IMG/VR virus record: IMGVR_UViG_3300016476_000987
Source of the DNA: a virus
Taxonomy: Duplodnaviria; Heunggongvirae; Uroviricota; Caudoviricetes
Direction: 5' to 3' (one strand)
DNA: 64,000 nt
Part shown: positions 7,849 through 49,434 of the stretch, piece by piece
Numbering within the stretch: position 1 is the first letter of the stretch
Layout: each line of letters starts with the position of its first letter
The notes under the pieces: generated by a model
What the model saw: only the letters and a program-made list of their open reading frames with translations
What the model was told of the DNA's origin: nothing
Database searches by the model: none
Translations under genes and position numbers: made by a program

Positions 7849-9753
7849 ATGAAAGATTTAGGGCTTGAAGCGTTGTCTAGGATCACAATTTTTTCCAAAT
7901 ATGCGAAATACATTCCGGAACTACAGAGGAGAGAGACCTGGGATGAGATTGTAGATCGTTACGAAAGCATGCTAGTAAAGAAATTCCCGAACTTACAGTT
8001 GGCTATTGTAGAAAATGCCAAATTTATTCGGGACAAAAAAATACTCCCTTCTATGAGGGCCTTGCAGTTTGCTGGTCCAGCTATGGAGGTGAATAATGCT
8101 AGAGGATACAACTGTTGCTACCTTCCTATTGATAGCATTCACGGGTTTAGTGAGACTATGTTCCTGTTATTGGGAGGTACCGGTGTAGGATATTCTGTAC
8201 AAAAGCATCATGTAGCCCAGCTTCCTGAAGTTAAAAAACCCGGAAAAGCTAGGAACTATCTGATCGAAGACAGTATTATGGGATGGGCCGATGCTGTAAA
8301 AGTGCTTATGAAAGCATATCTTGAAGGATCTTTTATGCCTAAGTTTGACTTTAGAGCTATTAGGCACAAAGGAGCACGTCTTATTACTGCTGGAGGTAAA
8401 GCTCCTGGTCCTGAGCCGTTGAAAATTTGTCTTACTCACATTCAGGCTATCTTAGATAGGAAAGAAGAAGGAGAGGCTTTGTCTCCCCTGGAGTGTCATG
8501 ACATTCTTTGTCACATTGCAAATAGCGTTCTATCCGGAGGAATCAGGAGATCAGCTATGATCGCTCTGTTTAGCCATGATGATGAGGAGATGATTACTTG
8601 TAAATATGGTAACTGGTGGGAACTCAATGAACAAAGAGGAAGAGCTAATAACTCTGCTGTTCTTAAAAGAGGAGAAGTAGAAGCTCAGGAATTTTTTGAT
8701 CTTTGGAAAAGAATCGAACTTAGCAACAGCGGAGAGCCTGGTATTTACTGGACTAACAATCTTGAATGGGGAACTAATCCATGCTGCGAGATCGCCCTTC
8801 GTCCCTATCAGTTCTGTAACCTTTGTGAAGTAAATGTTAGCGATGTTACTAGTCAACATGATTTAAACGAGAGAGTAGCAAAAGCGGCATTCTTCGGCAC
8901 ACTACAAGCTAGCTTTACAGACTTCCATTATCTTCGTCCTATCTGGCAAAAAACCACACAAAAGGATGCTCTATTAGGTATTGGTATGACCGGCATTGGT
9001 AGTGGAGAAATTTTGAAATATGATCTAGAAGAAGCGGCTAGTATAGGAATTTCTATAAATAAAGAAACAAGTGATGCTATAGGTACTAACCCAGCCGCTA
9101 GGGTTACTTGCATAAAGCCTTCAGGCACAACGAGTTTGGTATTGGGAACTGCTAGCGGTATCCACGCTTGGCATAATGATTACTATCTTCGCACTATGAG
9201 GTTTAACAAGAACGAAGACTTGGCTGCTTACCTTATGGTAAACCATCCTGAGCTTTGTGAAGATGACCAACTGAGACCTCATGACACTGTATGTGTAAGA
9301 ATTCCTGTTAAGGCTCCTGAAGGTTCTATATTCAGAACAGAGACAGCTATTGATACATTAGAGCGTGTTAAGAAGTTCTCTGTAGAATGGATTAAGGCAG
9401 GACATGTCAATGGAGACAACACACACAACGTAAGTGCTACAATTTCTATTGATAAGAGTAGAATGTATCCCTTCCATGTAGAAAACGGTGAAGTATGGGA
9501 AAGAGATGAGTGGGAAGAAGTAGGTATGTGGATGTGGAACAATAGAGAATTCTATAATGGTCTGTCTGTACTCCCCTACTTTGGAGGCTCATTTGTACAA
9601 GCTCCTTTTGAAGACATCAGCAAGGAAGAGTACGAAACCCGGATTCAGGCTGTCAAAGAAATCGATCTTACTAAAGTATTAGAGCTGGACGATACTGTAG
9701 ACTTTGGAGCTATTGCAGCTTGTGCCGGGGGTCAATGCGAAGTAAATATCTAA
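7849..9753 (+). CDS. nrdJ: class II (adenosylcobalamin-type) ribonucleotide reductase
   Basis: Active-site loop WGTNPCCEIAL (class II TNPCGEI type, not class I NLC-E), LPSMRALQFAG, and a C-terminal Cys pair in ACAGGQCEV. No small-subunit gene nearby. Confidence 0.8.
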   Translation: MKDLGLEALSRITIFSKYAKYIPELQRRETWDEIVDRYESMLVKKFPNLQLAIVENAKFIRDKKILPSMRALQFAGPAMEVNNARGYNCCYLPIDSIHGFSETMFLLLGGTGVGYSVQKHHVAQLPEVKKPGKARNYLIEDSIMGWADAVKVLMKAYLEGSFMPKFDFRAIRHKGARLITAGGKAPGPEPLKICLTHIQAILDRKEEGEALSPLECHDILCHIANSVLSGGIRRSAMIALFSHDDEEMITCKYGNWWELNEQRGRANNSAVLKRGEVEAQEFFDLWKRIELSNSGEPGIYWTNNLEWGTNPCCEIALRPYQFCNLCEVNVSDVTSQHDLNERVAKAAFFGTLQASFTDFHYLRPIWQKTTQKDALLGIGMTGIGSGEILKYDLEEAASIGISINKETSDAIGTNPAARVTCIKPSGTTSLVLGTASGIHAWHNDYYLRTMRFNKNEDLAAYLMVNHPELCEDDQLRPHDTVCVRIPVKAPEGSIFRTETAIDTLERVKKFSVEWIKAGHVNGDNTHNVSATISIDKSRMYPFHVENGEVWERDEWEEVGMWMWNNREFYNGLSVLPYFGGSFVQAPFEDISKEEYETRIQAVKEIDLTKVLELDDTVDFGAIAACAGGQCEVNI

Positions 9754-16075: not shown

Positions 16076-16285
16076 ATGGACAAACATTTTGCTGTATTAG
16101 TAGATGTTCCTACAAAAGGAGAAATGATGTTGTTTCTTGGTTACTATGAAGATAATAAAGAGCAAATGGATGAAAGATATGAAGAGGTATCTATGGATCT
16201 TCCATTAACTCCTATCCTTGATAAATTGAAATCACACAAGTATAAATTGTTTAAACAAAAAGAAATAAATAATGATCAAGACTGA
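16076..16285 (+). CDS. hypothetical protein
   Basis: 69-aa acidic ORF between groES and groEL, overlapping the groEL start by 14 nt. Confidence 0.45.
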   Translation: MDKHFAVLVDVPTKGEMMLFLGYYEDNKEQMDERYEEVSMDLPLTPILDKLKSHKYKLFKQKEINNDQD

Positions 16286-17945
16286 ATTTGGAAATGAGCT
16301 AAAAAGTAAACTGCTCAGCGGTATTTGTAAATTGAATGATAGCGTATCCTCTACTCTCGGTCCTGGAGGTAGAAACGTTATTATCCGGGATGAGGATGGC
16401 AACATTAAAGTAACGAAAGACGGAGTTACTGTAGCCAGGGCTTTCTCTAAGCTTGAGGATGATATTGAAGACATCGGTGCTCAGATGATCCGTAAAGTGT
16501 CTGAGAAGTCTGCTGATAAAGCAGGAGACGGTACTACAACCTCTACTCTCCTGGCTACTGTAATGGTAGAAGAAGGAATCAAAGTTATCACTCAGGGATG
16601 TAATGCCGTAGAAGTTAAAAAGGGTATTGACATTGGAGTAAAAAAAGTAGTAAGCCTTCTTAAAGAACTCTCAAGAGAAATCTCTTCTGATGATCAAATC
16701 AAACAAGTAGCTACTATCTCTGCCAATAACGATGTTGAAGTAGGAAATCTTATTGCAACAGCGATTGATAAAGTAGGTACTGACGGTGTTGTAGCTATTG
16801 AAGAATCTAAGACTGGTGAGACTTCTCTGGAAGTTGTTGAGGGTATGATGTTTGATCGTGGGTACAAATCCCCTTATTTTGTCACCAATCAGAATACTAT
16901 GCAAGCCGTTCTGGAAAAGCCACTTGTATTTCTGTATGATGGCAAAATAATGAACTCTAGCCAAGCAGTACCAGTTCTACAAGCAGCTGCTATGGAAAAT
17001 AGGCCCCTTCTTATTGTTGCGGAAGAAATCGAAGGAGAAGCCCTGGCTCTTCTTGTAGTAAATAAAGCTAATCAAACGATTAAGGTCTGTGCAGTAAAAG
17101 CTCCAGACTTTGGAGATCGTAGGACTGCTATTCTGGAGGACATCGCTATTCTAACCGGTGGAACTGTCCTGTCTCCTAACAAAGGTCACAAGCTTGATAA
17201 AATGAAGCCGACCGAGTTCAAAGCACATTTCGGAGAAGCAAGGGTAGTTAATGTTACTTCTAAAGACACTACAATCGTAGATGGAAAAGGATCAGCAGAG
17301 GCTATTGAGCAAAGACTGAACGAGATTAAGACTCAAATTGATATTGCTAAGTCTAATTTTGAGATTGAGAAACTTCAAGAAAGGTTGTCTAAACTTACTG
17401 GAGGAGTAGCTATCGTTAACGTAGGAGGTCTTAGTGAAGTGGAAATGAAGGAAAAGAAAGATCGTGTAGAAGATGCTCTTTACGCTACCAAAGCTGCGTT
17501 GGATCAAGGTATTGTCCCAGGAGGAGGAATGGCCCTTGTTATGTGCTCTTATAGGCTTCTTAAAGAAGCTATTACTGAGAACTCAGATCAACAAATTGGA
17601 GTTAGTATTGTATATAAATCATTAGTAGCTCCATTCAGAAAGATTATGCAAAATGCAGGGATTGAAGATTATCATTCTATGCTTAGTGAAATTCGTGATC
17701 TTAGAGTCGAGCATGAAAAGAAGCATCCCGAAGATCCTATGTTTCTCTGGTATGGATACAATGTGAAACTTGGAAATTTTGTTAACATGTATAAGGAAGG
17801 GATTATAGATCCGACTAAAGTAACTAGGACCGCCATAGAGAACGCAGCTAGCGTAGCCGGTACAATCCTTACTACAGAATCAGTAATCTTCTCAGTAGGA
17901 GAAAAAAAGAAAGAAGAAATTGATTACAGCCAATTCATGCAATAA
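16272..17945 (+). CDS. groEL: chaperonin GroEL (Cpn60)
   Basis: Full-length Cpn60 signature: [76 protein letters not shown]. The Gly-Met-rich C-terminal tail is absent. Confidence 0.97.
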
Positions 17946-41475: not shown

Positions 41476-42651
41476 ATGAACCAAATCGATATTGATTATC
41501 AAAACTTAGTAAGAGACATTCTTGAGAACGGAAGTCGTAAAAATGATCGTACCAAAACGGGAACCATAAGTGTCTTTGGTAGGACTATTAGACATAGTAT
41601 GAAGGATGGATTTCCACTTCTCACTACAAAGAAGATGGCGTTCAAAACAATGACAACAGAGTTATTGTGGTTTTTGCGTGGTGATACCAATATCAAATAC
41701 CTTGTTGACAATGGGTGTCACATTTGGGATGGTGATGCATGGAAACATTTTTCTACTGTTAGGAAGAGTATGTTAATGTTAAAACCACCTGCATCAGAAG
41801 ATAAATTACGTGAGTATATTGAATGGTATGAGCAAATAACAACACAAGAAGAGTTTATCAACAAAATCAAAACCGATGATGAGTTTGCAAAGAAGTGGGG
41901 AGACCTCGGACCTGTGTATGGAAAGCAGTGGAGGAGTTGGGAAAAATATGGGGTCAGAGGAGTTCAAAATGGAGCAGCCGATATGGGATGGGAAGTTGAA
42001 TCTCCATATATTGACCAAATCGCAAACGTAATCAATCTACTCAAGACAGACCCTGACAGTCGAAGAATGATTGTGAGTGCCTGGAACACAGCGGATTTGT
42101 CAGCAATGGTCCTGCCACCATGCCACATGATGTTTCAGTTTTATACGAGAGAGTTGAGTGAGAGCGAGATATGGGATTATATTCACAAAAATAAAATTGA
42201 AATTAAACATCAACACGCTGTACTATATGGTCACGAAGTTGGAAGTGAATTAAGAAAATCATTTATACCAACACTAAAAGAGAATTATAACATACCAACC
42301 AGAGCAATCTCACTACGATGGGACCAACGCAGCGTTGACGTAGGTCTCGGTTTGCCGTTCAACATAGCAAGTTACGCTCTACTATTGGAGATAGTAGCTA
42401 AAGCAGTTAACATGATTCCTGAAGAACTTATTGGTGATTTAGGTGATTGTCACATCTATAATAATCATATTGATGGCTTGAAAGAACAATTGACTAGAGT
42501 ACCGTATGAGCTACCAACAGTAAAATTACCAAAAACTGATGCGTTTTGGAAAGTATTTGATGTTTCTTTGTTTGGTCACCTCAACTCGACTGATTTCATT
42601 TTAGAAAACTATCAATCACATCCGGCAATTAAACTTCCACTTTCAAATTAA
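41476..42651 (+). CDS. thyA: thymidylate synthase (ThyA) with two in-frame insertions
   Basis: RTKTGTISVFG, GDLGPVYGKQWRSW, VLPPCHMMFQFY, QRSVDVGLGLPFNIASYALL, GDCHIYNNH. At 391 aa it is about 125 aa longer than the compact ThyA form. Confidence 0.93.
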   Translation: MNQIDIDYQNLVRDILENGSRKNDRTKTGTISVFGRTIRHSMKDGFPLLTTKKMAFKTMTTELLWFLRGDTNIKYLVDNGCHIWDGDAWKHFSTVRKSMLMLKPPASEDKLREYIEWYEQITTQEEFINKIKTDDEFAKKWGDLGPVYGKQWRSWEKYGVRGVQNGAADMGWEVESPYIDQIANVINLLKTDPDSRRMIVSAWNTADLSAMVLPPCHMMFQFYTRELSESEIWDYIHKNKIEIKHQHAVLYGHEVGSELRKSFIPTLKENYNIPTRAISLRWDQRSVDVGLGLPFNIASYALLLEIVAKAVNMIPEELIGDLGDCHIYNNHIDGLKEQLTRVPYELPTVKLPKTDAFWKVFDVSLFGHLNSTDFILENYQSHPAIKLPLSN

Positions 42652-43386: not shown

Positions 43387-43397
43387 GAAATAAAAAA

Positions 43398-43415
43398 GGG
43401 TAGATCTCTCTACCC
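43398..43415. terminator. bidirectional intrinsic terminator
   Basis: GGGTAGA-TCTC-TCTACCC flanked by an A-run upstream and TTTTCTTTTC downstream, between convergent genes 43102..43386 (+) and 43439..43633 (-). Confidence 0.75.
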
Positions 43416-43438
43416 TTTTCTTTTCTAGCTTAATTCAA

Positions 43439-43633
43439 TTAAGCTGCTTTCTTCTTGTCCAGAATGGACCAAACGGCACCTGCGAGGGTGATAACAGCAC
43501 CGATAACCTGGCTAAGGCCAGCTTCATCGAATATGCCATTAGTTACCATAAAGCCACCGCCAAAGGTTAATACGTGGCGAAGAAGACCGAGTACTTGATC
43601 TTTTGTCATAAATTTACTAATTTTGGTACACAT
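43439..43633 (-). CDS. small membrane protein (holin-like size and topology)
   Basis: 64 aa with two hydrophobic segments (VLTFGGGFMVTNGIF, VIGAVITLAGAVWSIL) and a charged end (DKKKAA). The only - strand gene in this area. Confidence 0.5.
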   Translation of the reverse strand: MCTKISKFMTKDQVLGLLRHVLTFGGGFMVTNGIFDEAGLSQVIGAVITLAGAVWSILDKKKAA

Positions 43634-43671: not shown

Positions 43672-44400
43672 ATGAACCCTCCCCCTAAGTATCCATTACT
43701 ATCAGATGATACTATCAATATAGTGATATGTGAAGATCATATTCTATACAGGCAAGGAATAAAATACACTCTGGATCAAAAGAATAATATACAAATTATC
43801 GGAGAAGCCGATAACGGAGTGTCTTTATTAAATCTACTAAAGCATGTGACTCCTAACATTATTATCCTGGATATTAACATGCCGGTAATGGATGGGGTAG
43901 CTGTGCTACCGGAAATAAAAAGACTGTACCCGGCCATAAAAGTACTGGTCCTTACTATGAATAATACTCCGGAAATGATAGAGATCATGATGTCTAAAGG
44001 AGCTGACGGGTATCTCACAAAGAATGATGATCCGGAAGTTATCTATACGGCCATCTTAGATTGCCATAAAGAAGGAAAATACATAGATAAGAGAACCCAG
44101 GACGTACTTATAAACACTGTTAGGAGAGTAGGAGGAGATCCTATTATAGATATCCCTAATAAAACTACTCAGCCTGCTAGATTTGACACCCCTATACCAG
44201 ACAAAGAACCTTGGTATAAAATGCCAACCAGAGCTACTCTAGTAGGCCTAGGAATAGCTTTTGCTGTGTTTATAGGTCTATACGCATATGAGAAGCTTAG
44301 GGTCAGTAATAAGCCTGTAAAGACGGTACAAGCTCCTCCTAGTTATCCACAAGATTATAACAATAATCGATATGGACTAGATACCATATTCTCTAAATAA
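43672..44400 (+). CDS. orphan response-regulator receiver (REC) domain protein with C-terminal TM anchor
   Basis: The CheY-like set is complete: acidic pair in ICEDH, phospho-acceptor in IIILDINMPVMDG, T in VLVLTMN, K in GADGYLTK. No output HTH is present. A TM helix ATLVGLGIAFAVFIGLYAY lies near the C-terminus. Confidence 0.75.
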   Translation: MNPPPKYPLLSDDTINIVICEDHILYRQGIKYTLDQKNNIQIIGEADNGVSLLNLLKHVTPNIIILDINMPVMDGVAVLPEIKRLYPAIKVLVLTMNNTPEMIEIMMSKGADGYLTKNDDPEVIYTAILDCHKEGKYIDKRTQDVLINTVRRVGGDPIIDIPNKTTQPARFDTPIPDKEPWYKMPTRATLVGLGIAFAVFIGLYAYEKLRVSNKPVKTVQAPPSYPQDYNNNRYGLDTIFSK

Positions 44401-44432: not shown

Positions 44433-44834
44433 ATGAAAAACATGAAGAACAAATTAGTCGAGTGGCTTATAGTTCTGGTTGTAGCATTTACTGCTGTTTT
44501 TTTTGTGGTTACAAAAACAATAAAAGGAACAAACGTACAAGTAGCCCTACAATTAGAGAAGCAATCTAAAGATCTGGAGCAGATTAGTAGCGATGTAATG
44601 TTGAATCAACAAAGCATATTGATGGTCAACGACTTAATCGTTGATATGGATACTAATCAAGCTAAGTATCTGAATGCAATAAAAGAGAACACTAGGTGGC
44701 AGCAAATCAACTACCAGCAGATGTTAAAACTAAAAACCATTTACGATGAAAAAATTAATTCTGTTAGTAATTATAATTACAATCAGGTTGACAGCTTTTT
44801 CGCAAACCGATACGACAGTTACAAAAAAGATTGA
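44433..44834 (+). CDS. N-terminally anchored membrane protein
   Basis: TM helix LVEWLIVLVVAFTAVFFVV, then a Gln/Asn-rich helical region. Confidence 0.55.
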   Translation: MKNMKNKLVEWLIVLVVAFTAVFFVVTKTIKGTNVQVALQLEKQSKDLEQISSDVMLNQQSILMVNDLIVDMDTNQAKYLNAIKENTRWQQINYQQMLKLKTIYDEKINSVSNYNYNQVDSFFANRYDSYKKD

Positions 44835-45195
44835 TACTTCTTTTGTAAGTCTACCTAAAGCCGTAGCGGTACAAGTAATAAAAGATTTAGTAACAAAAGA
44901 TTATTTAGTAGAAGAAAATAAACTTTTAACTTCTACTAATATCTTATTAACAAATAATATATTATTAAAAGACAGCTTACTACAAAAAAAAGATTCTATT
45001 GTTAGTTTATATATACAAAAAGAATCTTATTTTACTAAGACATTAGAAATGAAAGACTTAGAAATCCATTCTTATAAATCCACACAGTCTATTCTAATAA
45101 AAGAAAATAGTAAATTAAACAAAAAACTTTCTTTTTCTAGAGGACTTATTATTAGCGTTTTAGTATTAATGTCTACTTTATTTGCTATTAAATAA
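44746..45195 (+). CDS. secreted / C-terminally anchored protein, overlaps upstream gene by 89 nt
   Basis: Signal-like MKKLILLVIIITIRLTAFS and C-terminal TM LIISVLVLMSTLFAI. Confidence 0.5.
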   Translation: MKKLILLVIIITIRLTAFSQTDTTVTKKIDTSFVSLPKAVAVQVIKDLVTKDYLVEENKLLTSTNILLTNNILLKDSLLQKKDSIVSLYIQKESYFTKTLEMKDLEIHSYKSTQSILIKENSKLNKKLSFSRGLIISVLVLMSTLFAIK

Positions 45196-45227: not shown

Positions 45228-45710
45228 ATGAAAAAAATATTGATCAGCATAGTACTCATGCTGACCTCCCTATTTTCTATTAGCCAGGATTTTATAAAGG
45301 ATAGAAAGTACGCTGGAGACCCTCTATTTGACTTTGTATATGAATGGTGGAGGACTCCCTACAGGTATGGAGGCCAAAGCAAGAAAGGAATAGACTGTAG
45401 CGCTTTTACTCAGAGATTAGCTAAAGAAGTGTATGGAAAGTCCTTGCTAAGGACTGCTAGTCAGCAATATAGATCTTCAAGAAGAATCCCAAAAGACTCC
45501 TTAACAGATGGAGATCTAGTATTTTTTAAGATAAAGTCAAGGAGATATACTAGAAAAGGAAAGACTTACTATACATCCGGATGGCATGTGGGAGTTTATC
45601 TTACAAAAGGGTGGTTTATACATTCTAGTTCTAATGGAGGAGTAAAGCTTAGTAATTTAGAAGATCCTTTTTATAAACGGATCTATTATTCTTCTGGTAG
45701 GTTTTTATAA
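45228..45710 (+). CDS. NlpC/P60 cell-wall peptidase (candidate endolysin) with signal peptide
   Basis: Catalytic GIDCSAFTQ, GDLVFF, and His in WHVGVYL. N-terminal MKKILISIVLMLTSLFS. Confidence 0.8.
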   Translation: MKKILISIVLMLTSLFSISQDFIKDRKYAGDPLFDFVYEWWRTPYRYGGQSKKGIDCSAFTQRLAKEVYGKSLLRTASQQYRSSRRIPKDSLTDGDLVFFKIKSRRYTRKGKTYYTSGWHVGVYLTKGWFIHSSSNGGVKLSNLEDPFYKRIYYSSGRFL

Positions 45711-45765: not shown

Positions 45766-46911
45766 ATGAAATTGACTCTTGATGCTAGTAGAGAGAAGCT
45801 GTATTATGATAGAAGCTATGAAAGCTCTTTTCCAATAGCCAATTACTATGTTCAAAAGTTTGGGAGGTTTCCTTTAGTATATACTTTCGGGGTATATTAT
45901 GAGGAAACTCTTGTTGAATATCTTGTTTCTTCTGGGTATGAAAAGTTATGGTCTTCAGAGAAGGAAACCAAAAAGGGCCAGAAAGAAGACGTATCTGTGT
46001 ATTATAAATCTGATACACTAGTACAAGTAGAGTACCACACAAACAATGAGAATTACGAACGTAGTTATGATTTTGGAGATAGTTCTCTACTAAAAGAAGT
46101 CGATTCTAAACAACCTGGAGATATTGTACTAAAAATGGTAGTATACTATTCTAGCAGAGAAATGTTTGAGATATTAAGGGAGAATATCAATAAGTACAAA
46201 ATAGACGATTCTGATAAGCCTAAGATCCTCCTGGTTACTTCTAACAGTAGGGGATTGACGACTATTCCTCAATACATTAATAATATGGAGGGGCTTGACA
46301 TCGGACTTAATTATGGAGAAGCGTTTGAAAAGACTCACAACAAAATTGTAGAAAGACTAAGCCAAGATAAAGGAAAGGGGCTTGTACTTCTTCATGGAAA
46401 GCCTGGGACCGGTAAGACTAGCTATATCCGGTACTTGTGCTCTGTAGTAGATAAAAGAGTGATCTTTATCCCCCCTTACCTTACCGAGAATATCTCCAGC
46501 CCTCAGTTTGTTCCCTTCCTTATAGAGCACTCTAATTCTATTCTAGTGATAGAAGATGCTGAAAAGATCATTATAGATAGAGATTCAGCTGAGAGCAGCC
46601 GACAAGGAGTAGCAAACATTCTTAATCTTACAGACGGTATATTGAGCGATTGCTTATCTATTCAGATAATAGCAACCTTTAATACTACTAGAGAAAAAAT
46701 AGACAAAGCTTTGTTGAGGAAGGGGAGACTTATCGCAGAACATAAGTTTGATGAACTCAGCGTAGAAAATAGCAATAAACTATTGAAGCATCTCCAAAAA
46801 GACTACACAACCAATAAACCAATGACTCTTACTGAGATATACAACTTCGGAGAAGAAGAGTATCTTGCTCAAGAAGAATCTAGGTCGATCGGATTCAACT
46901 CTCGTTATTAA
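45766..46911 (+). CDS. AAA+ ATPase with unknown N-terminal domain
   Basis: Walker A LLHGKPGTGKTSY, Walker B ILVIEDAE, TFNT...ALLRKGRL (second region of homology / Arg finger). Confidence 0.8.
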   Translation: MKLTLDASREKLYYDRSYESSFPIANYYVQKFGRFPLVYTFGVYYEETLVEYLVSSGYEKLWSSEKETKKGQKEDVSVYYKSDTLVQVEYHTNNENYERSYDFGDSSLLKEVDSKQPGDIVLKMVVYYSSREMFEILRENINKYKIDDSDKPKILLVTSNSRGLTTIPQYINNMEGLDIGLNYGEAFEKTHNKIVERLSQDKGKGLVLLHGKPGTGKTSYIRYLCSVVDKRVIFIPPYLTENISSPQFVPFLIEHSNSILVIEDAEKIIIDRDSAESSRQGVANILNLTDGILSDCLSIQIIATFNTTREKIDKALLRKGRLIAEHKFDELSVENSNKLLKHLQKDYTTNKPMTLTEIYNFGEEEYLAQEESRSIGFNSRY

Positions 46912-46930: not shown

Positions 46931-47137
46931 ATGGCAAAAACCAAGAGCCAGCAACAGAAGCTGGTAAATTACCTGATGAAGAACCGTAAGATCACAGCAA
47001 AGCAAGCTGAGGCTAAGTTTGGAACTAAGAACCTCCGGGCCAGGATTAATGATCTCCGACAGGCTGGATGGGAAATCGTTTCCGATCGAAATCCCAAAGA
47101 TCAACGAACTGTTATTTATCGGGTAGTTTCTTATTAA
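46931..47137 (+). CDS. small winged-helix / HTH protein
   Basis: ITAKQAEAKFGTKNLRARINDLRQAGWEI pattern. Confidence 0.5.
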   Translation: MAKTKSQQQKLVNYLMKNRKITAKQAEAKFGTKNLRARINDLRQAGWEIVSDRNPKDQRTVIYRVVSY

Positions 47138-47148
47138 TCTTTAACTCA

Positions 47149-47181
47149 AGTAGGAGAGAGGCTCATAGCTTTTCTCCTACT
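47149..47181 (+). terminator. stem-loop after the wHTH gene (possible terminator)
   Basis: AGTAGGAGA (47149-47157) pairs with TCTCCTACT (47173-47181), with a 15-nt loop. The downstream tract is AT-rich but not a clean U-run. Confidence 0.35.
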
Positions 47182-47195
47182 TAATTAATTATTCT

Positions 47196-48062: not shown

Positions 48063-48248
48063 ATGCCAGTAATAAATCCTGAGACTATCTTTTCGGAGAT
48101 AATAGCTGAACTAGAAGCAATAAAGGATATTTATTCCTATTCTAACAACAATCAATTGTATAATTCCTTTGTAGATCTTTGCATAGAAAAAGTTTTGGAG
48201 ATCAAAGAAAAGCACGATTCAGAAAATCAAAATAACACAAATGAGTAA
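48063..48248 (+). CDS. hypothetical protein
   Basis: 61-aa ORF. Confidence 0.45.
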   Translation: MPVINPETIFSEIIAELEAIKDIYSYSNNNQLYNSFVDLCIEKVLEIKEKHDSENQNNTNE

Positions 48249-49434
48249 AAAAGAAGAGATCCAAACAAGAAATGATAGAATCCAGAAATATCTTATAGAA
48301 AATCCTGAAAAACTATCCGCAGATTACGAAGACACTGCTAAACTATTTAATGTTACTTCTGAGACTATTAGGCACATTTGTAGAAAACTTAGAGCAAAGA
48401 TATCGATTAACGAAAAAGAAGAAAGGTTTGTAATCACCGAGCAGGTATTACTTAGAAAGGAAAATGCAGAGATCAAGTCTTTAAAAAGACAACTAGAACA
48501 AGCGGTAAAAGACTACCAGGAATTATCAGATGCTTATGATATTGCTCTAAATCTAAAGAGCTCTCCGGTAATAGATAATGTTCCCTCTATAGATTTTAAT
48601 CAAAAAGAAACACAGGAAGCCACAGTAATTGTACAAATAAGCGATGGTCACTTTGGAAAAGTGATTACACCTTCTACAGTAAATGGATTGAACAAATACA
48701 ATCCGGACATCGCTAAGAAAAGGATGGAGACCTGCGCAGAGAATACGATCAGACTAGTAAAAAAAGAAAGGGAAGATATTAAGATCACCAATATGGTATT
48801 GATCTTGGGAGGAGACTTCCTGGAGAATAGCCAGCTTCATCATCACAGTGAAATGACAACGGCCCTCTCTCCTATGGAAGAAACTTTATTTTCCAGGGAA
48901 GTATTAAAAAAGTATATAAAGACTGTAGGAGAGTATTGCAATTTCAATAAGATGATCGTAGCCTGTACGAGAGGAAACCATGCGAGGATTACCCACAAGA
49001 TGATCTCTTCTGTAGACTACAGAATGAACTATGAGACTATACTCTACAACATCCTTCGTAGTGATTTTGAAGGAGAGAATATAGACTGGACAATTCCGGA
49101 TTCAGAAGTAGCTGAAGTAGAAGTATATGGTAATAGCCTTAGAATTATTCACGGACACCAAGTTAAGTACCAGGGTGGAGTTGGAGGATTGACTATCCCT
49201 CTTAATAAGTATGTTATGAGGATGGACCAAATAAATAAGGCTTATTATAATTTTGTGCATCACTATCATAACCTCAGCTACCCTACTGTAAACACTACTG
49301 TAAATGGAAGCATTGTAGGATATGATCCATATGCTATGAGTATAGGATGTTCTTATCAACCTCCTATGCAAGCATTTCAACTATTAGATTCTAGAAGAGG
49401 CATGACAATCAAGGCTCCAATATTTTGTGATTAA
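48241..49434 (+). CDS. calcineurin-like metallophosphoesterase with N-terminal HTH-like region
   Basis: VQISDGHFG, LGGDFLEN, RGNHARI, IIHGHQ. N-terminal TAKLFNVTSETIRHICRKL. Confidence 0.65.
   Translation: MSKKEEIQTRNDRIQKYLIENPEKLSADYEDTAKLFNVTSETIRHICRKLRAKISINEKEERFVITEQVLLRKENAEIKSLKRQLEQAVKDYQELSDAYDIALNLKSSPVIDNVPSIDFNQKETQEATVIVQISDGHFGKVITPSTVNGLNKYNPDIAKKRMETCAENTIRLVKKEREDIKITNMVLILGGDFLENSQLHHHSEMTTALSPMEETLFSREVLKKYIKTVGEYCNFNKMIVACTRGNHARITHKMISSVDYRMNYETILYNILRSDFEGENIDWTIPDSEVAEVEVYGNSLRIIHGHQVKYQGGVGGLTIPLNKYVMRMDQINKAYYNFVHHYHNLSYPTVNTTVNGSIVGYDPYAMSIGCSYQPPMQAFQLLDSRRGMTIKAPIFCD

Follow-up and report, generated by a model that had tools for sequence, protein, structure and literature searches.

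A membrane-anchored NarL-type receiver protein of large uncultured Bacteroidota phages and its conserved bitopic partner

Background

Receiver (REC) domains are well understood, whereas their deployment by phages and outputs that consist of a membrane anchor alone are largely unexplored. In the NarL/FixJ (LuxR-type) response regulators the receiver is joined through a linker helix to a DNA-binding helix-turn-helix (HTH) domain. In the CheY-type single-domain regulators, such as Sinorhizobium CheY1 and Myxococcus EpsW, it stands without any enzymatic or DNA-binding output. The cREC domains of jumbo phages are divergent versions of the receiver that are tied to NAD+ systems (Iyer et al. 2021, PMC7824862). 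Here we describe a further version, encoded by one open reading frame (ORF) within 64,000 nucleotides (nt) of phage DNA, the IMG/VR record IMGVR_UViG_3300016476_000987; the whole stretch is called the window below, and the protein REC-TM, for its receiver and its single transmembrane (TM) helix.

An initial annotation of the window, made from its sequence alone, had recognised in this ORF an orphan receiver tethered to the membrane. The present analysis adds the family to which the protein belongs, a partner gene, and membrane-anchored relatives in cells. We found no account in the literature of a phage REC-TM protein or of a membrane-anchored phage receiver, and phrase searches that combined 'membrane-anchored', 'membrane-bound', 'membrane-tethered' or 'transmembrane' with 'response regulator' returned no paper. 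The phage REC-TM family is previously undescribed.

The receiver domain and its membrane anchor

The REC-TM ORF has only one possible ATG start, and the Pfam model Response_reg (PF00072) matches residues 17-128 of its product with E=1.3e-24 and 86.9 bits against a cut-off of 30.2. The best of the NCBIfam models is NarL, whose profile of 216 positions aligns over positions 4-144 with residues 12-152, and the further top models, MctR, NarP and UvrY, likewise match through the REC and linker portion of regulators of about 215 amino acids (aa). As REC-TM has no output domain, none of the full-length models comes near its cut-off; for NarL the score is 87 bits, where 250 are required. The NarL proteins of M. 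tuberculosis and E. coli were the best matches in a sequence search of the PDB. An AlphaFold2 (AF2) model built on 120 family sequences displays the (beta-alpha)5 fold over residues 15-134, with strands (E) and helices (H) in the order E-H-E-H-E-H-E-H-E-H and a predicted local distance difference test score (pLDDT) above 90. When this model was compared with the PDB by means of Foldseek, RcsB, VraR, LiaR, DesR and NarL emerged at the top (E down to 5e-13), with a probability of 1.00 for the REC domains of RcsB, VraR and NarL; for NarL/FixJ regulators such as NarL, RcsB, VraR and DesR the E values are around 1e-12 and the root mean square deviations 1.3-2.6 Å. The receiver fold proposed in the initial annotation is thus supported by Pfam, AF2 and Foldseek alike.

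The residues on which receiver phospho-chemistry depends had also been claimed to be in place, and the HMMER alignment to E. coli NarL (1a04) bears this out. E21 and D22 correspond to D13 and D14, D67 (codon 43870-43872, GAT) to the phospho-acceptor D59, and K117 to K109, while T95 occupies the Thr/Ser position (S87 in NarL); to these we add Y114 at the aromatic-switch position, which is a Tyr in NarL as well. The first acidic position, residue 21, is thereby occupied by Glu, not Asp. Glu at this position is common in active response regulators.

The similarity to NarL-family regulators extends beyond the receiver into helix alpha6, the counterpart of their REC-to-HTH linker helix. PF00072 is the sole domain detected, and according to Pfam and AF2 the rest of the protein comprises a disordered linker, the TM helix and a disordered tail. 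Outside the REC core there is one hydrophobic segment, the 19-mer ATLVGLGIAFAVFIGLYAY (residues 188-206). Pfam gave no GerE match, and tblastn searches with host and NarL HTH sequences revealed no GerE-type HTH in any frame of the window. The statement of the initial annotation that a linker, one TM helix and an external tail have taken the place of the output domain therefore stands, with the tail measured at 36 aa. The possibility of a frameshifted or decayed NarL-type regulator was ruled out, as the HTH is absent in all frames and the TM is kept in all 120 relatives described below. Taken together, the sequence comparisons indicate that REC-TM is a complete and apparently phosphorylatable NarL/FixJ-type receiver, whose DNA-binding output has been replaced by the linker, the TM helix and the tail.

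Extent and conservation of the family in phages

A word-indexed search of 5.8 billion proteins with REC-TM returned 333 matches; the family statistics given here refer to the 120 of these that were listed, which are clusters at 90% identity, so that the family comprises at least 120 clusters. All 120 are 203-257 aa in length and contain PF00072 only. Each of them has a strongly hydrophobic C-terminal 19-mer (Kyte-Doolittle score of at least 1.74), which in 118 of the 120 is the sole such segment. The 15 residues before the TM helix contain on average 4.95 Lys or Arg, against 1.75 after it, a bias that indicates an N-in/C-out topology.

Conservation is centred on the receiver: at each position the commonest residue reaches an average frequency of 0.73 in REC, 0.50 in alpha6, 0.37 in the linker (with 27% gaps), 0.42 in the TM helix and 0.38 in the tail. 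C20, D22, H23, D67, K117 and C131 are among the residues that are invariant in the 120 homologues, and D21 (Glu in the window protein) and T116, which precedes K117, are nearly so (at least 90%). Position 95 is Thr or Ser in the 30 homologues that were aligned. A comparison of 72 distinct tails revealed a short recurrent motif, which in most clades is N-[LM]-x-x-[ILF]-x-[ND]-[IF], just past the TM helix, and in the clade of the window [YF]-x-P-P...N-N.

These patterns bear on whether the domain might be a pseudo-receiver that works independently of phosphorylation, or the remnant, without any specific function, of a NarL-type regulator gene that was captured and has since decayed. Such an origin would account for the missing output domain and for the Glu at the first acidic position. 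It is nevertheless highly improbable. Across 120 clusters of 37-60% identity D22, D67 and K117 do not vary and residue 21 hardly does; every listed member has the TM helix, no cryptic HTH lies in another frame, and the family is widespread and syntenic.

The carriers are phages. A protein identical to REC-TM is present on a metagenomic contig of 183,965 bp, and homologues are found on contigs of uncultured phages, the largest being 369 kb; phage genes are present on those of 119-369 kb. IMG/VR contains five REC-TM loci, located on viral contigs 45-251 kb long. Comparison of the window with PHROGs recovered a DnaB-like helicase, ribonucleotide reductase (RNR), a family-A DNA polymerase (PolA), a UvsX-like recombinase, an exonuclease, a GroEL-like chaperonin and glycosyltransferases. 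The closest cultured relative is Flavobacterium phage vB_FspM_immuto, an Immutovirus of 160 kb that is devoid of the REC-TM module; the PolA proteins of the two show 53% identity along the full length. Bacterial contamination, or a host gene at a prophage border, was ruled out by the phage replication genes, GroEL, tRNAs and PolA, and by the presence of homologues on phage contigs. The carrier is a large uncultured phage, probably of Bacteroidota. The chaperonin gene (16272-17945, plus strand) encodes a full-length GroEL-like protein of 557 aa (PHROG 5725, E=8e-149).

In cultured phages, and among the bacterial matches examined, the architecture was not encountered. In 50,697 GenBank records of cultured phages, tblastn gave matches to the REC domain only, at identities of at most 40%, and many of these matches come from records with host contamination. 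Two peptide patterns were scanned against 185,579 species-representative bacterial genomes, which gives incomplete coverage. No REC-TM architecture appeared among the bacterial matches examined; the fourteen closest matches were REC + GerE-HTH regulators of Chitinophagaceae/Chitinophagales, without a TM helix and 43-50% identical. REC-TM represents a large, conserved family, so far seen only in large uncultured phages that are relatives of Flavobacterium phage immuto.

Cellular relatives of the receiver

The REC domains of the phage clades are 47-62% identical to those of a group of Chitinophagaceae REC-HTH regulators, when compared over REC and alpha6, as against 30-40% to generic NarL-type regulators of Bacteroidota. 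These Chitinophagaceae proteins, of 215-230 aa (for example in L014, Flavihumibacter stibioxidans, and L015, Paraflavitalea speifideaquila), contain the closest cellular REC domains found; unlike REC-TM, they are soluble proteins with a GerE HTH, and their genes have surroundings that are conserved in bacterial chromosomes. A neighbour-joining tree, computed without bootstrap, places the phage proteins beside a grouping of these regulators with a second cellular type, the GYF_2-REC-TM proteins described below, and away from the generic NarL regulators. Nineteen positions separate this orthogroup from generic NarL; the phage family retains 52% of them on average, compared with at most 25% in the generic regulators, a value fixed by the construction of the set. 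The orthogroup residues best retained in the phage family, H58, T116, I124, Y125 and C131, belong to beta5/alpha5 and are shared with the Chitinophagaceae regulators, as is a helix of the form C[YH]..[YF]F.N.LTN; the corresponding CY/CH..YFFN.LTN helix of REC-TM alpha6 recurs both in these REC-HTH proteins and in the GYF_2-REC-TM relatives. In the NarL family the alpha1/alpha5 face serves in kinase docking, as seen in the DesK-DesR structures, and in the phospho-dependent dimerisation of VraR, LiaR and DesR.

The second cellular type came from a filter-free HMMER search of 1.84 billion representatives, in which 36 proteins were recovered at E ≤ 1e-30. Among these are the short REC-TM proteins and at least 15 clusters of proteins of 480-625 aa. 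The latter begin with a GYF_2-like region, continue with REC, a linker of about 30-45 aa and one TM helix, and end in a large C-terminal part outside the cytoplasm. A sequence motif pointed to the GYF_2 region in these clusters, and Pfam matched it in two of the four proteins checked (P0123 and P0140), below the Pfam cut-off. One of the genes lies between an alpha-2-macroglobulin-type gene and a succinyl-CoA ligase, which is a cellular context. The REC domain is of the same orthogroup, 42-48% identical to that of the window protein (54% between P0118 and P0138), and the layout of REC, alpha6, linker of about 30-45 aa and single TM helix is colinear with the phage protein. A membrane-anchored version of the orthogroup receiver hence exists in cells. 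The phage proteins have neither the GYF_2 N-terminus nor the extracytoplasmic region of about 200 aa or more: REC-TM of the window has 14 residues before REC and 36 past the TM helix. Homology of the TM segments themselves was considered and set aside, as the two layouts are colinear, yet the sequence signal stops past alpha6. The GYF_2-REC-TM family, which is probably from Bacteroidota, includes P0123, P0124, P0128-P0130, P0138, P0140 and others, as well as loci L115 and L116, and its C-terminal region ends in a conserved stretch of about 100 aa.

A cognate kinase was sought with a hidden Markov model (HMM) made from 48 HisKA_3/HATPase kinases encoded beside the bacterial regulators and run without filters (--max). 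As a control, the model recovered 62 kinases in the bacterial loci. It had no match above 10 bits among the 239 ORFs of the window or the 733 ORFs of eight related phage loci, so that no phage-encoded histidine kinase was found in these regions, in agreement with the initial annotation, in which no such gene had been seen around REC-TM.

These observations lend themselves to the main alternative, namely that REC-TM is purely a decoy, that is, a phosphate sink or dominant-negative protein that sits beside the host kinase at the membrane and drains phosphoryl groups, or that heterodimerises with the REC-HTH or GYF_2-REC-TM proteins of the host, so that a host envelope or stress response is silenced; a downstream membrane protein, w133, would then be functionally unrelated or a mere stabiliser. 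The specific similarity to a single host orthogroup, on which identity (47-62%) and tree agree, fits this well, as do the concentration of conservation on REC with the orthogroup signature kept in beta5/alpha5, and the retention of the chemistry, with D22, D67 and K117 invariant and the first acidic position nearly so. The deletion of the output domain and the lack of a detectable kinase in the window and the eight related loci would be expected as well. There are also precedents. PIT4 of phage LSL4, which is not a receiver, is reported to interfere with host two-component systems (PMC10714779), and truncated host regulators occur in phages, as in the spo0A homologues, which show the opposite truncation in keeping the effector and losing the receiver (PMC10294663). 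On the other hand, a sink has no need of a co-inherited, often translationally coupled membrane partner or of a recurrent extracytoplasmic tail motif, and the closest cellular REC relatives found are in Chitinophagaceae, yet the nearest cultured phage infects Flavobacterium. We therefore regard a pure decoy as possible, if on the unlikely side.

Around the Chitinophagaceae regulators lie only housekeeping genes, additional paralogous regulators and, at a distance of 2-3 kb, a small kinase, none of which hints at a function. In four of these loci (L006, L008, L017 and L018) a second, paralogous REC-HTH gene precedes the REC-HTH orthologue, and the opposite strand carries, 2-3.5 kb upstream, genes for a third regulator and for a small kinase of about 270 aa, the latter being a candidate for the cognate kinase of the REC orthogroup.

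The partner gene

The product of w133, the gene directly downstream of REC-TM, is a small bitopic protein whose TM helix is N-terminal; AF2 predicts for it a continuous helix over residues 2-112 and another over 116-132. Eight lineages were inspected, the window, L004 and the P0010 contig counting as one, and in seven of the eight a small bitopic protein with an N-terminal TM helix and a helical periplasmic part is encoded immediately after REC-TM; the two are therefore a conserved gene pair. The partner has 133 aa in the window and L004 and 132 aa in the P0010 contig. In the other lineages its length is 108 aa (L001), 107 aa (L086), 131 aa (L111), 139 aa (L113), 105 aa (L088) and 80 aa (L090). 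The partners of the window, L004, L113, L001, L086 and L111 are joined transitively by phmmer with E values of 1e-6 to 1e-16, and those of L088 and L090 are proteins of like architecture in the position of w133. From the REC-TM stop to the start of the partner the gaps are 32, 35, 11, 8, -4, -4, 31 and 49 nt.

The pair persists while its flanks vary. It lies between HAD-like and ThyA genes in L086, between DUF6878 and a lipoprotein in L111, between a secreted 157-aa protein and a w149-like protein in L113, and between a 116-aa protein and a glycosyltransferase-like protein in L001. A profile search with six partners gathered 145 proteins. When the best 120 matches of REC-TM and of the partner are compared, 25 sizes of longest contigs of at least 5 kb match exactly between the two lists, and these shared ones include six of the seven contigs of at least 100 kb that bear REC-TM homologues, the exception being the 221-kb contig of L089. 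In cultured phages neither w133 nor w149, the gene after it in the window, had a tblastn match at E ≤ 1. The JGI names attached to w133 relatives (EnvC, CwlO-like, MCP, YoxC) were discounted as coiled-coil compositional matches, which are no evidence of function.

Locus L089 contains a REC-TM variant of 285 aa (8007-8864) that has a coiled-coil-like segment in its linker (KSTEILERIVKKLDEIEQRANHEEQKQ) and no separate partner gene; the function of the partner may have been fused or replaced in this variant.

Gene neighbourhood

In this phage REC-TM sits in a lysis-type gene neighbourhood (Table 1). The neighbours listed in the initial annotation, namely a bidirectional terminator, a holin-sized membrane protein, two further membrane proteins and an NlpC/P60 peptidase, were all recovered by Pfam, terminator scan and hydropathy. 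The terminator ends the genes upstream on the plus strand, and REC-TM therefore opens a putative new transcription unit on that strand. The holin gene, which is the only minus-strand gene in a run of about 50 kb of plus-strand genes, is divergent from REC-TM with 38 bp between them; with so short a divergent region and a shared bidirectional terminator, the promoters of both genes must overlap coding sequence. REC-TM, w133, w149, the NlpC/P60 gene, an AAA ATPase gene and an HTH_39 gene presumably lie on one transcript. The NlpC/P60 protein has an N-terminal signal peptide (hydrophobic residues 2-20) and, judging from its sequence, is probably the endolysin. The AAA ATPase (45766-46911, plus strand) is a protein of 381 aa, of which the N-terminal half of about 190 aa is without assignment, and the HTH_39 protein (46931-47137, plus strand) is small; the two genes keep their place in the gene order of L001, L004 and the P0010 contig.

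Table 1. Features of the window, with coordinates given as positions of the window
Feature	Coordinates	Strand	Description	Evidence
tRNA cluster	31343-35902		four genes: Leu-TAG, Leu-TAA, Met-CAT, Arg-TCT	
Bidirectional intrinsic terminator	43394..43419	both	ends upstream plus-strand genes and the minus-strand holin	terminator scan
Holin	43439..43633	-	64 aa, Phage_holin_10 / Pam3 gp28 family	PF23987 E=1.9e-16; arrangement recurs in L004, L005
REC-TM gene	43672..44400	+	242 aa, membrane-anchored NarL-type receiver	ORF call; PF00072; at least 120 homologous clusters with the same architecture
Receiver domain	43714..44073	+	residues 15-134	AF2 fold; Foldseek; NarL alignment
Helix alpha6	44089..44130	+	residues 140-153	AF2 pLDDT above 90; NCBIfam NarL match reaching residue 152
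Linker	44131..44229	+	residues 154-186, disordered, basic juxtamembrane end	pLDDT below 50 over 156-181
TM helix	44230..44289	+	residues 187-206, single, N-in/C-out	Kyte-Doolittle 19-mer 1.95; AF2 helix 181-212
Extracytoplasmic tail	44290..44397	+	36 aa, short recurrent motif	tail comparison; disordered in AF2
w133 (partner)	44433..44834	+	133 aa; TM 6-31, invariant E10 in short cytoplasmic N-tail, periplasmic helix of about 80 residues	
w149	44746..45195	+	149 aa; signal peptide (...LTAFS|Q), coiled-coil, C-terminal TM	ORF; hydropathy
NlpC/P60 endopeptidase	45228..45710	+	160 aa, secreted	Pfam NLPC_P60 E=8.7e-24; NCBIfam murein DD-endopeptidase E=1e-23
Next plus-strand terminator	47148..47182	+	16-bp stem; presumed end of the REC-TM unit	terminator scan

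The order holin (minus strand), REC-TM, w133, w149, NlpC/P60, AAA, HTH_39 is common to the window, L004/L005 and the P0010 contig. Lysis or peptidoglycan genes occur within about 5.5 kb of REC-TM in most lineages and are immediately adjacent to it in the clade of the window. L113 has a Phage_lysozyme gene 2.3 kb downstream of REC-TM, L001 a holin 4.3 kb and an M15 peptidase 5.4 kb upstream, and L111, L088 and L090 have PG_binding_1 proteins at +0.7 to +3.4 kb. In L111 a lipoprotein of 63 aa (LASC) directly follows the partner; next come a 429-aa protein, akin to the PG_binding_1 proteins that L088 and L090 encode 1.2-3.4 kb downstream, and a membrane protein with a PspC domain. Thus peptidoglycan-active genes of several unrelated families lie near REC-TM, which argues for a functional link to lysis. 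A proline/tyrosine-rich 'YPDDVYY' lipoprotein is encoded 0.03-1.4 kb upstream of REC-TM in L088 (7273-7548), L089 (7615-7974) and L090 (6225-6608), and is a candidate for an o-spanin-like or outer-membrane component.

The arrangement of w133 and w149 invites comparison with the two-component spanins, such as lambda Rz/Rz1 and P2 LysB/LysC. Like an i-spanin, w133 has an N-terminal TM helix and a long periplasmic helix; as in overlapped spanin genes, w149 overlaps the 3' end of w133 in the +1 frame (by 89 nt, and by 83-89 nt across homologues including those of L004 and L113), and the two lie between a holin and an endolysin. A lysis cassette with holin and endolysin thus surrounds the pair in the window, and such a cassette is not seen in every lineage. 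Unlike spanins, w149 has a cleavable signal peptide and a C-terminal TM helix, and the lipobox cysteine is absent from it and from its homologues (signal peptide ...LT[AV]FS|Q); for these reasons w149 is not an outer-membrane lipoprotein. Neither w133 nor w149 resembles known spanins in sequence, and a true lipoprotein follows the w133 homologue in L111 alone. We know of no spanin that is preceded by a receiver protein.

A different function for the module is suggested by its wider surroundings: REC-TM lies in a region of replication and nucleotide metabolism (ThyA, RNR, PolA and a dNMP-kinase-like protein), and in L086 and L001 the pair is beside ThyA without a directly adjacent lysis gene. 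The module might then be one for superinfection exclusion or envelope remodelling, in which REC-TM works with w133 and w149, the receiver acts as a regulated oligomerisation domain, and expression coincides with that of the early or middle genes of nucleotide metabolism. The exclusion proteins Imm and Sp of T4 are small early membrane or periplasmic proteins. We consider a non-lysis module of this kind decidedly unlikely, as holin, endolysin or lipoprotein genes are directly adjacent in several lineages and nothing points specifically to exclusion.

ThyA, or ThyX in the case of the P0010 contig, is encoded 0.3-2 kb from REC-TM in most lineages. The ThyA protein of the window (41476-42651, plus strand) is unusually long at 391 aa, its homologues in related phages having 353-371 aa. 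The most conserved protein of the region is one of 397 aa (48241-49434, plus strand), which is 75-77% identical in L001 and L004, compared with 44-54% for REC-TM there; it has no Pfam, NCBIfam or PHROG match and a faint PADLOC match to 'oligonucleotide cyclase' (E=0.004). A known defence or anti-defence system was likewise considered, and PADLOC gave nothing meaningful.

A functional reading of the module

The initial annotation had put forward two functions, a phosphate sink for a two-component system of the host and a coupling of host envelope or energy signalling to lysis timing; the comparative evidence speaks in part for and in part against each. The explanation that we favour, to which we would give a probability of about 0.4, is that REC-TM is a membrane module switched by phosphorylation, which receives its phosphoryl groups from a host kinase and acts together with w133 on an envelope or lysis step. 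It would proceed as follows: 1) A host kinase of the HisKA_3 type, or acetyl-phosphate, would phosphorylate D67 of the cytoplasmic receiver; a phosphoryl donor from the host is proposed because no phage kinase was detected in the regions inspected. The likely kinase would be the one that serves the related host REC orthogroup, that is, the Chitinophagaceae-type REC-HTH and GYF_2-REC-TM proteins. 2) Phosphorylation would drive dimerisation through the alpha1/alpha5 face and thereby bring two anchors together. 3) Through the TM helix and tail, the dimer would alter the state of w133 and, in the clade of the window, of w149, whose long periplasmic helices might act in the envelope. 4) The most likely output would be control of an envelope or lysis step, for instance the timing or gating of the endolysin, or of a spanin-like action, by the physiological state of the host. 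Titration of host phosphoryl groups could be a side effect or a second function. The link to a host pathway is supported by the kinship of the receiver with one Bacteroidota orthogroup and by the invariance of its phospho-chemistry residues, and control of the envelope or of lysis appears the likeliest output because the module opens a putative unit containing NlpC/P60 and abuts the holin.

Several observations weigh against this explanation: 1) Phosphorylation, dimerisation and contact with w133 are all steps that we infer. 2) The kinase search covers about 64 kb of a genome of about 184 kb, and a kinase may be encoded elsewhere in it. 3) The TM helix and the tail are weakly conserved (0.42 and 0.38, respectively), as is expected of a mere anchor. 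4) The partner gene is absent from L089, the exception among the eight lineages. 5) Among the neighbours read in L086, where the pair stands between HAD-like and ThyA, no lysis gene was identified. 6) Phage immuto, which has no REC-TM, also has its endolysin about 4 kb from ThyA, so that part of the proximity to lysis genes may be inherited synteny. 7) The assignment of w133/w149 to the canonical spanins holds only in part, w149 being without a lipobox.

A broader proposition is that a widespread group of large Bacteroidota phages times or gates envelope disruption by means of a membrane-anchored receiver. Phosphorylated by a host histidine kinase or by acetyl-phosphate, it would relay the physiological state of the host through its TM helix to w133/w149 and so control a secreted endolysin or a spanin-like step. 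In this general form we find it doubtful.

Conclusions

If this broader proposition holds, the phages would possess a lysis clock governed by two-component signalling, the first of its kind, and REC-TM would be the first response regulator whose output is a TM anchor acting in trans on a periplasmic partner. Should the family function as we propose, the virus would be plugged into a two-component pathway of its host at the membrane, either blinding the host or reading its state to decide when the envelope is breached. As a compact and abundant example of REC-controlled TM signalling, the family could inform the workings of the GYF_2-REC-TM proteins, and it adds candidates to the poorly defined lysis and spanin repertoire of Bacteroidota phages. 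A practical limitation is that all carriers are uncultured and that the closest isolate, immuto, is without the module.

Viewed against the systems already described, REC-TM is closest in its receiver and linker helix to the NarL/FixJ regulators NarL, RcsB, VraR and DesR, which it matches in both sequence and fold. It differs from them in being phage-encoded, in having a TM helix and tail instead of the HTH and in the lack of a cognate kinase found nearby, and as it has no HTH it is not a NarL-family transcription factor. With the single-domain regulators of the CheY1 and EpsW kind it shares the absence of an enzymatic or DNA-binding output; these may act by protein-protein contact or by competition for phosphoryl groups, and REC-TM possibly does likewise. 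Those proteins are soluble and are encoded by cells together with their pathways, whereas REC-TM is of the NarL subtype, encoded by phages and paired with a bitopic protein, and its membrane anchor sets it apart from a soluble single-domain regulator. The cREC domains of jumbo phages (PMC7824862) likewise place a receiver fold in large phages; identification of REC-TM with them was ruled out, cREC being divergent and NAD+-linked and REC-TM a canonical receiver of the NarL type.

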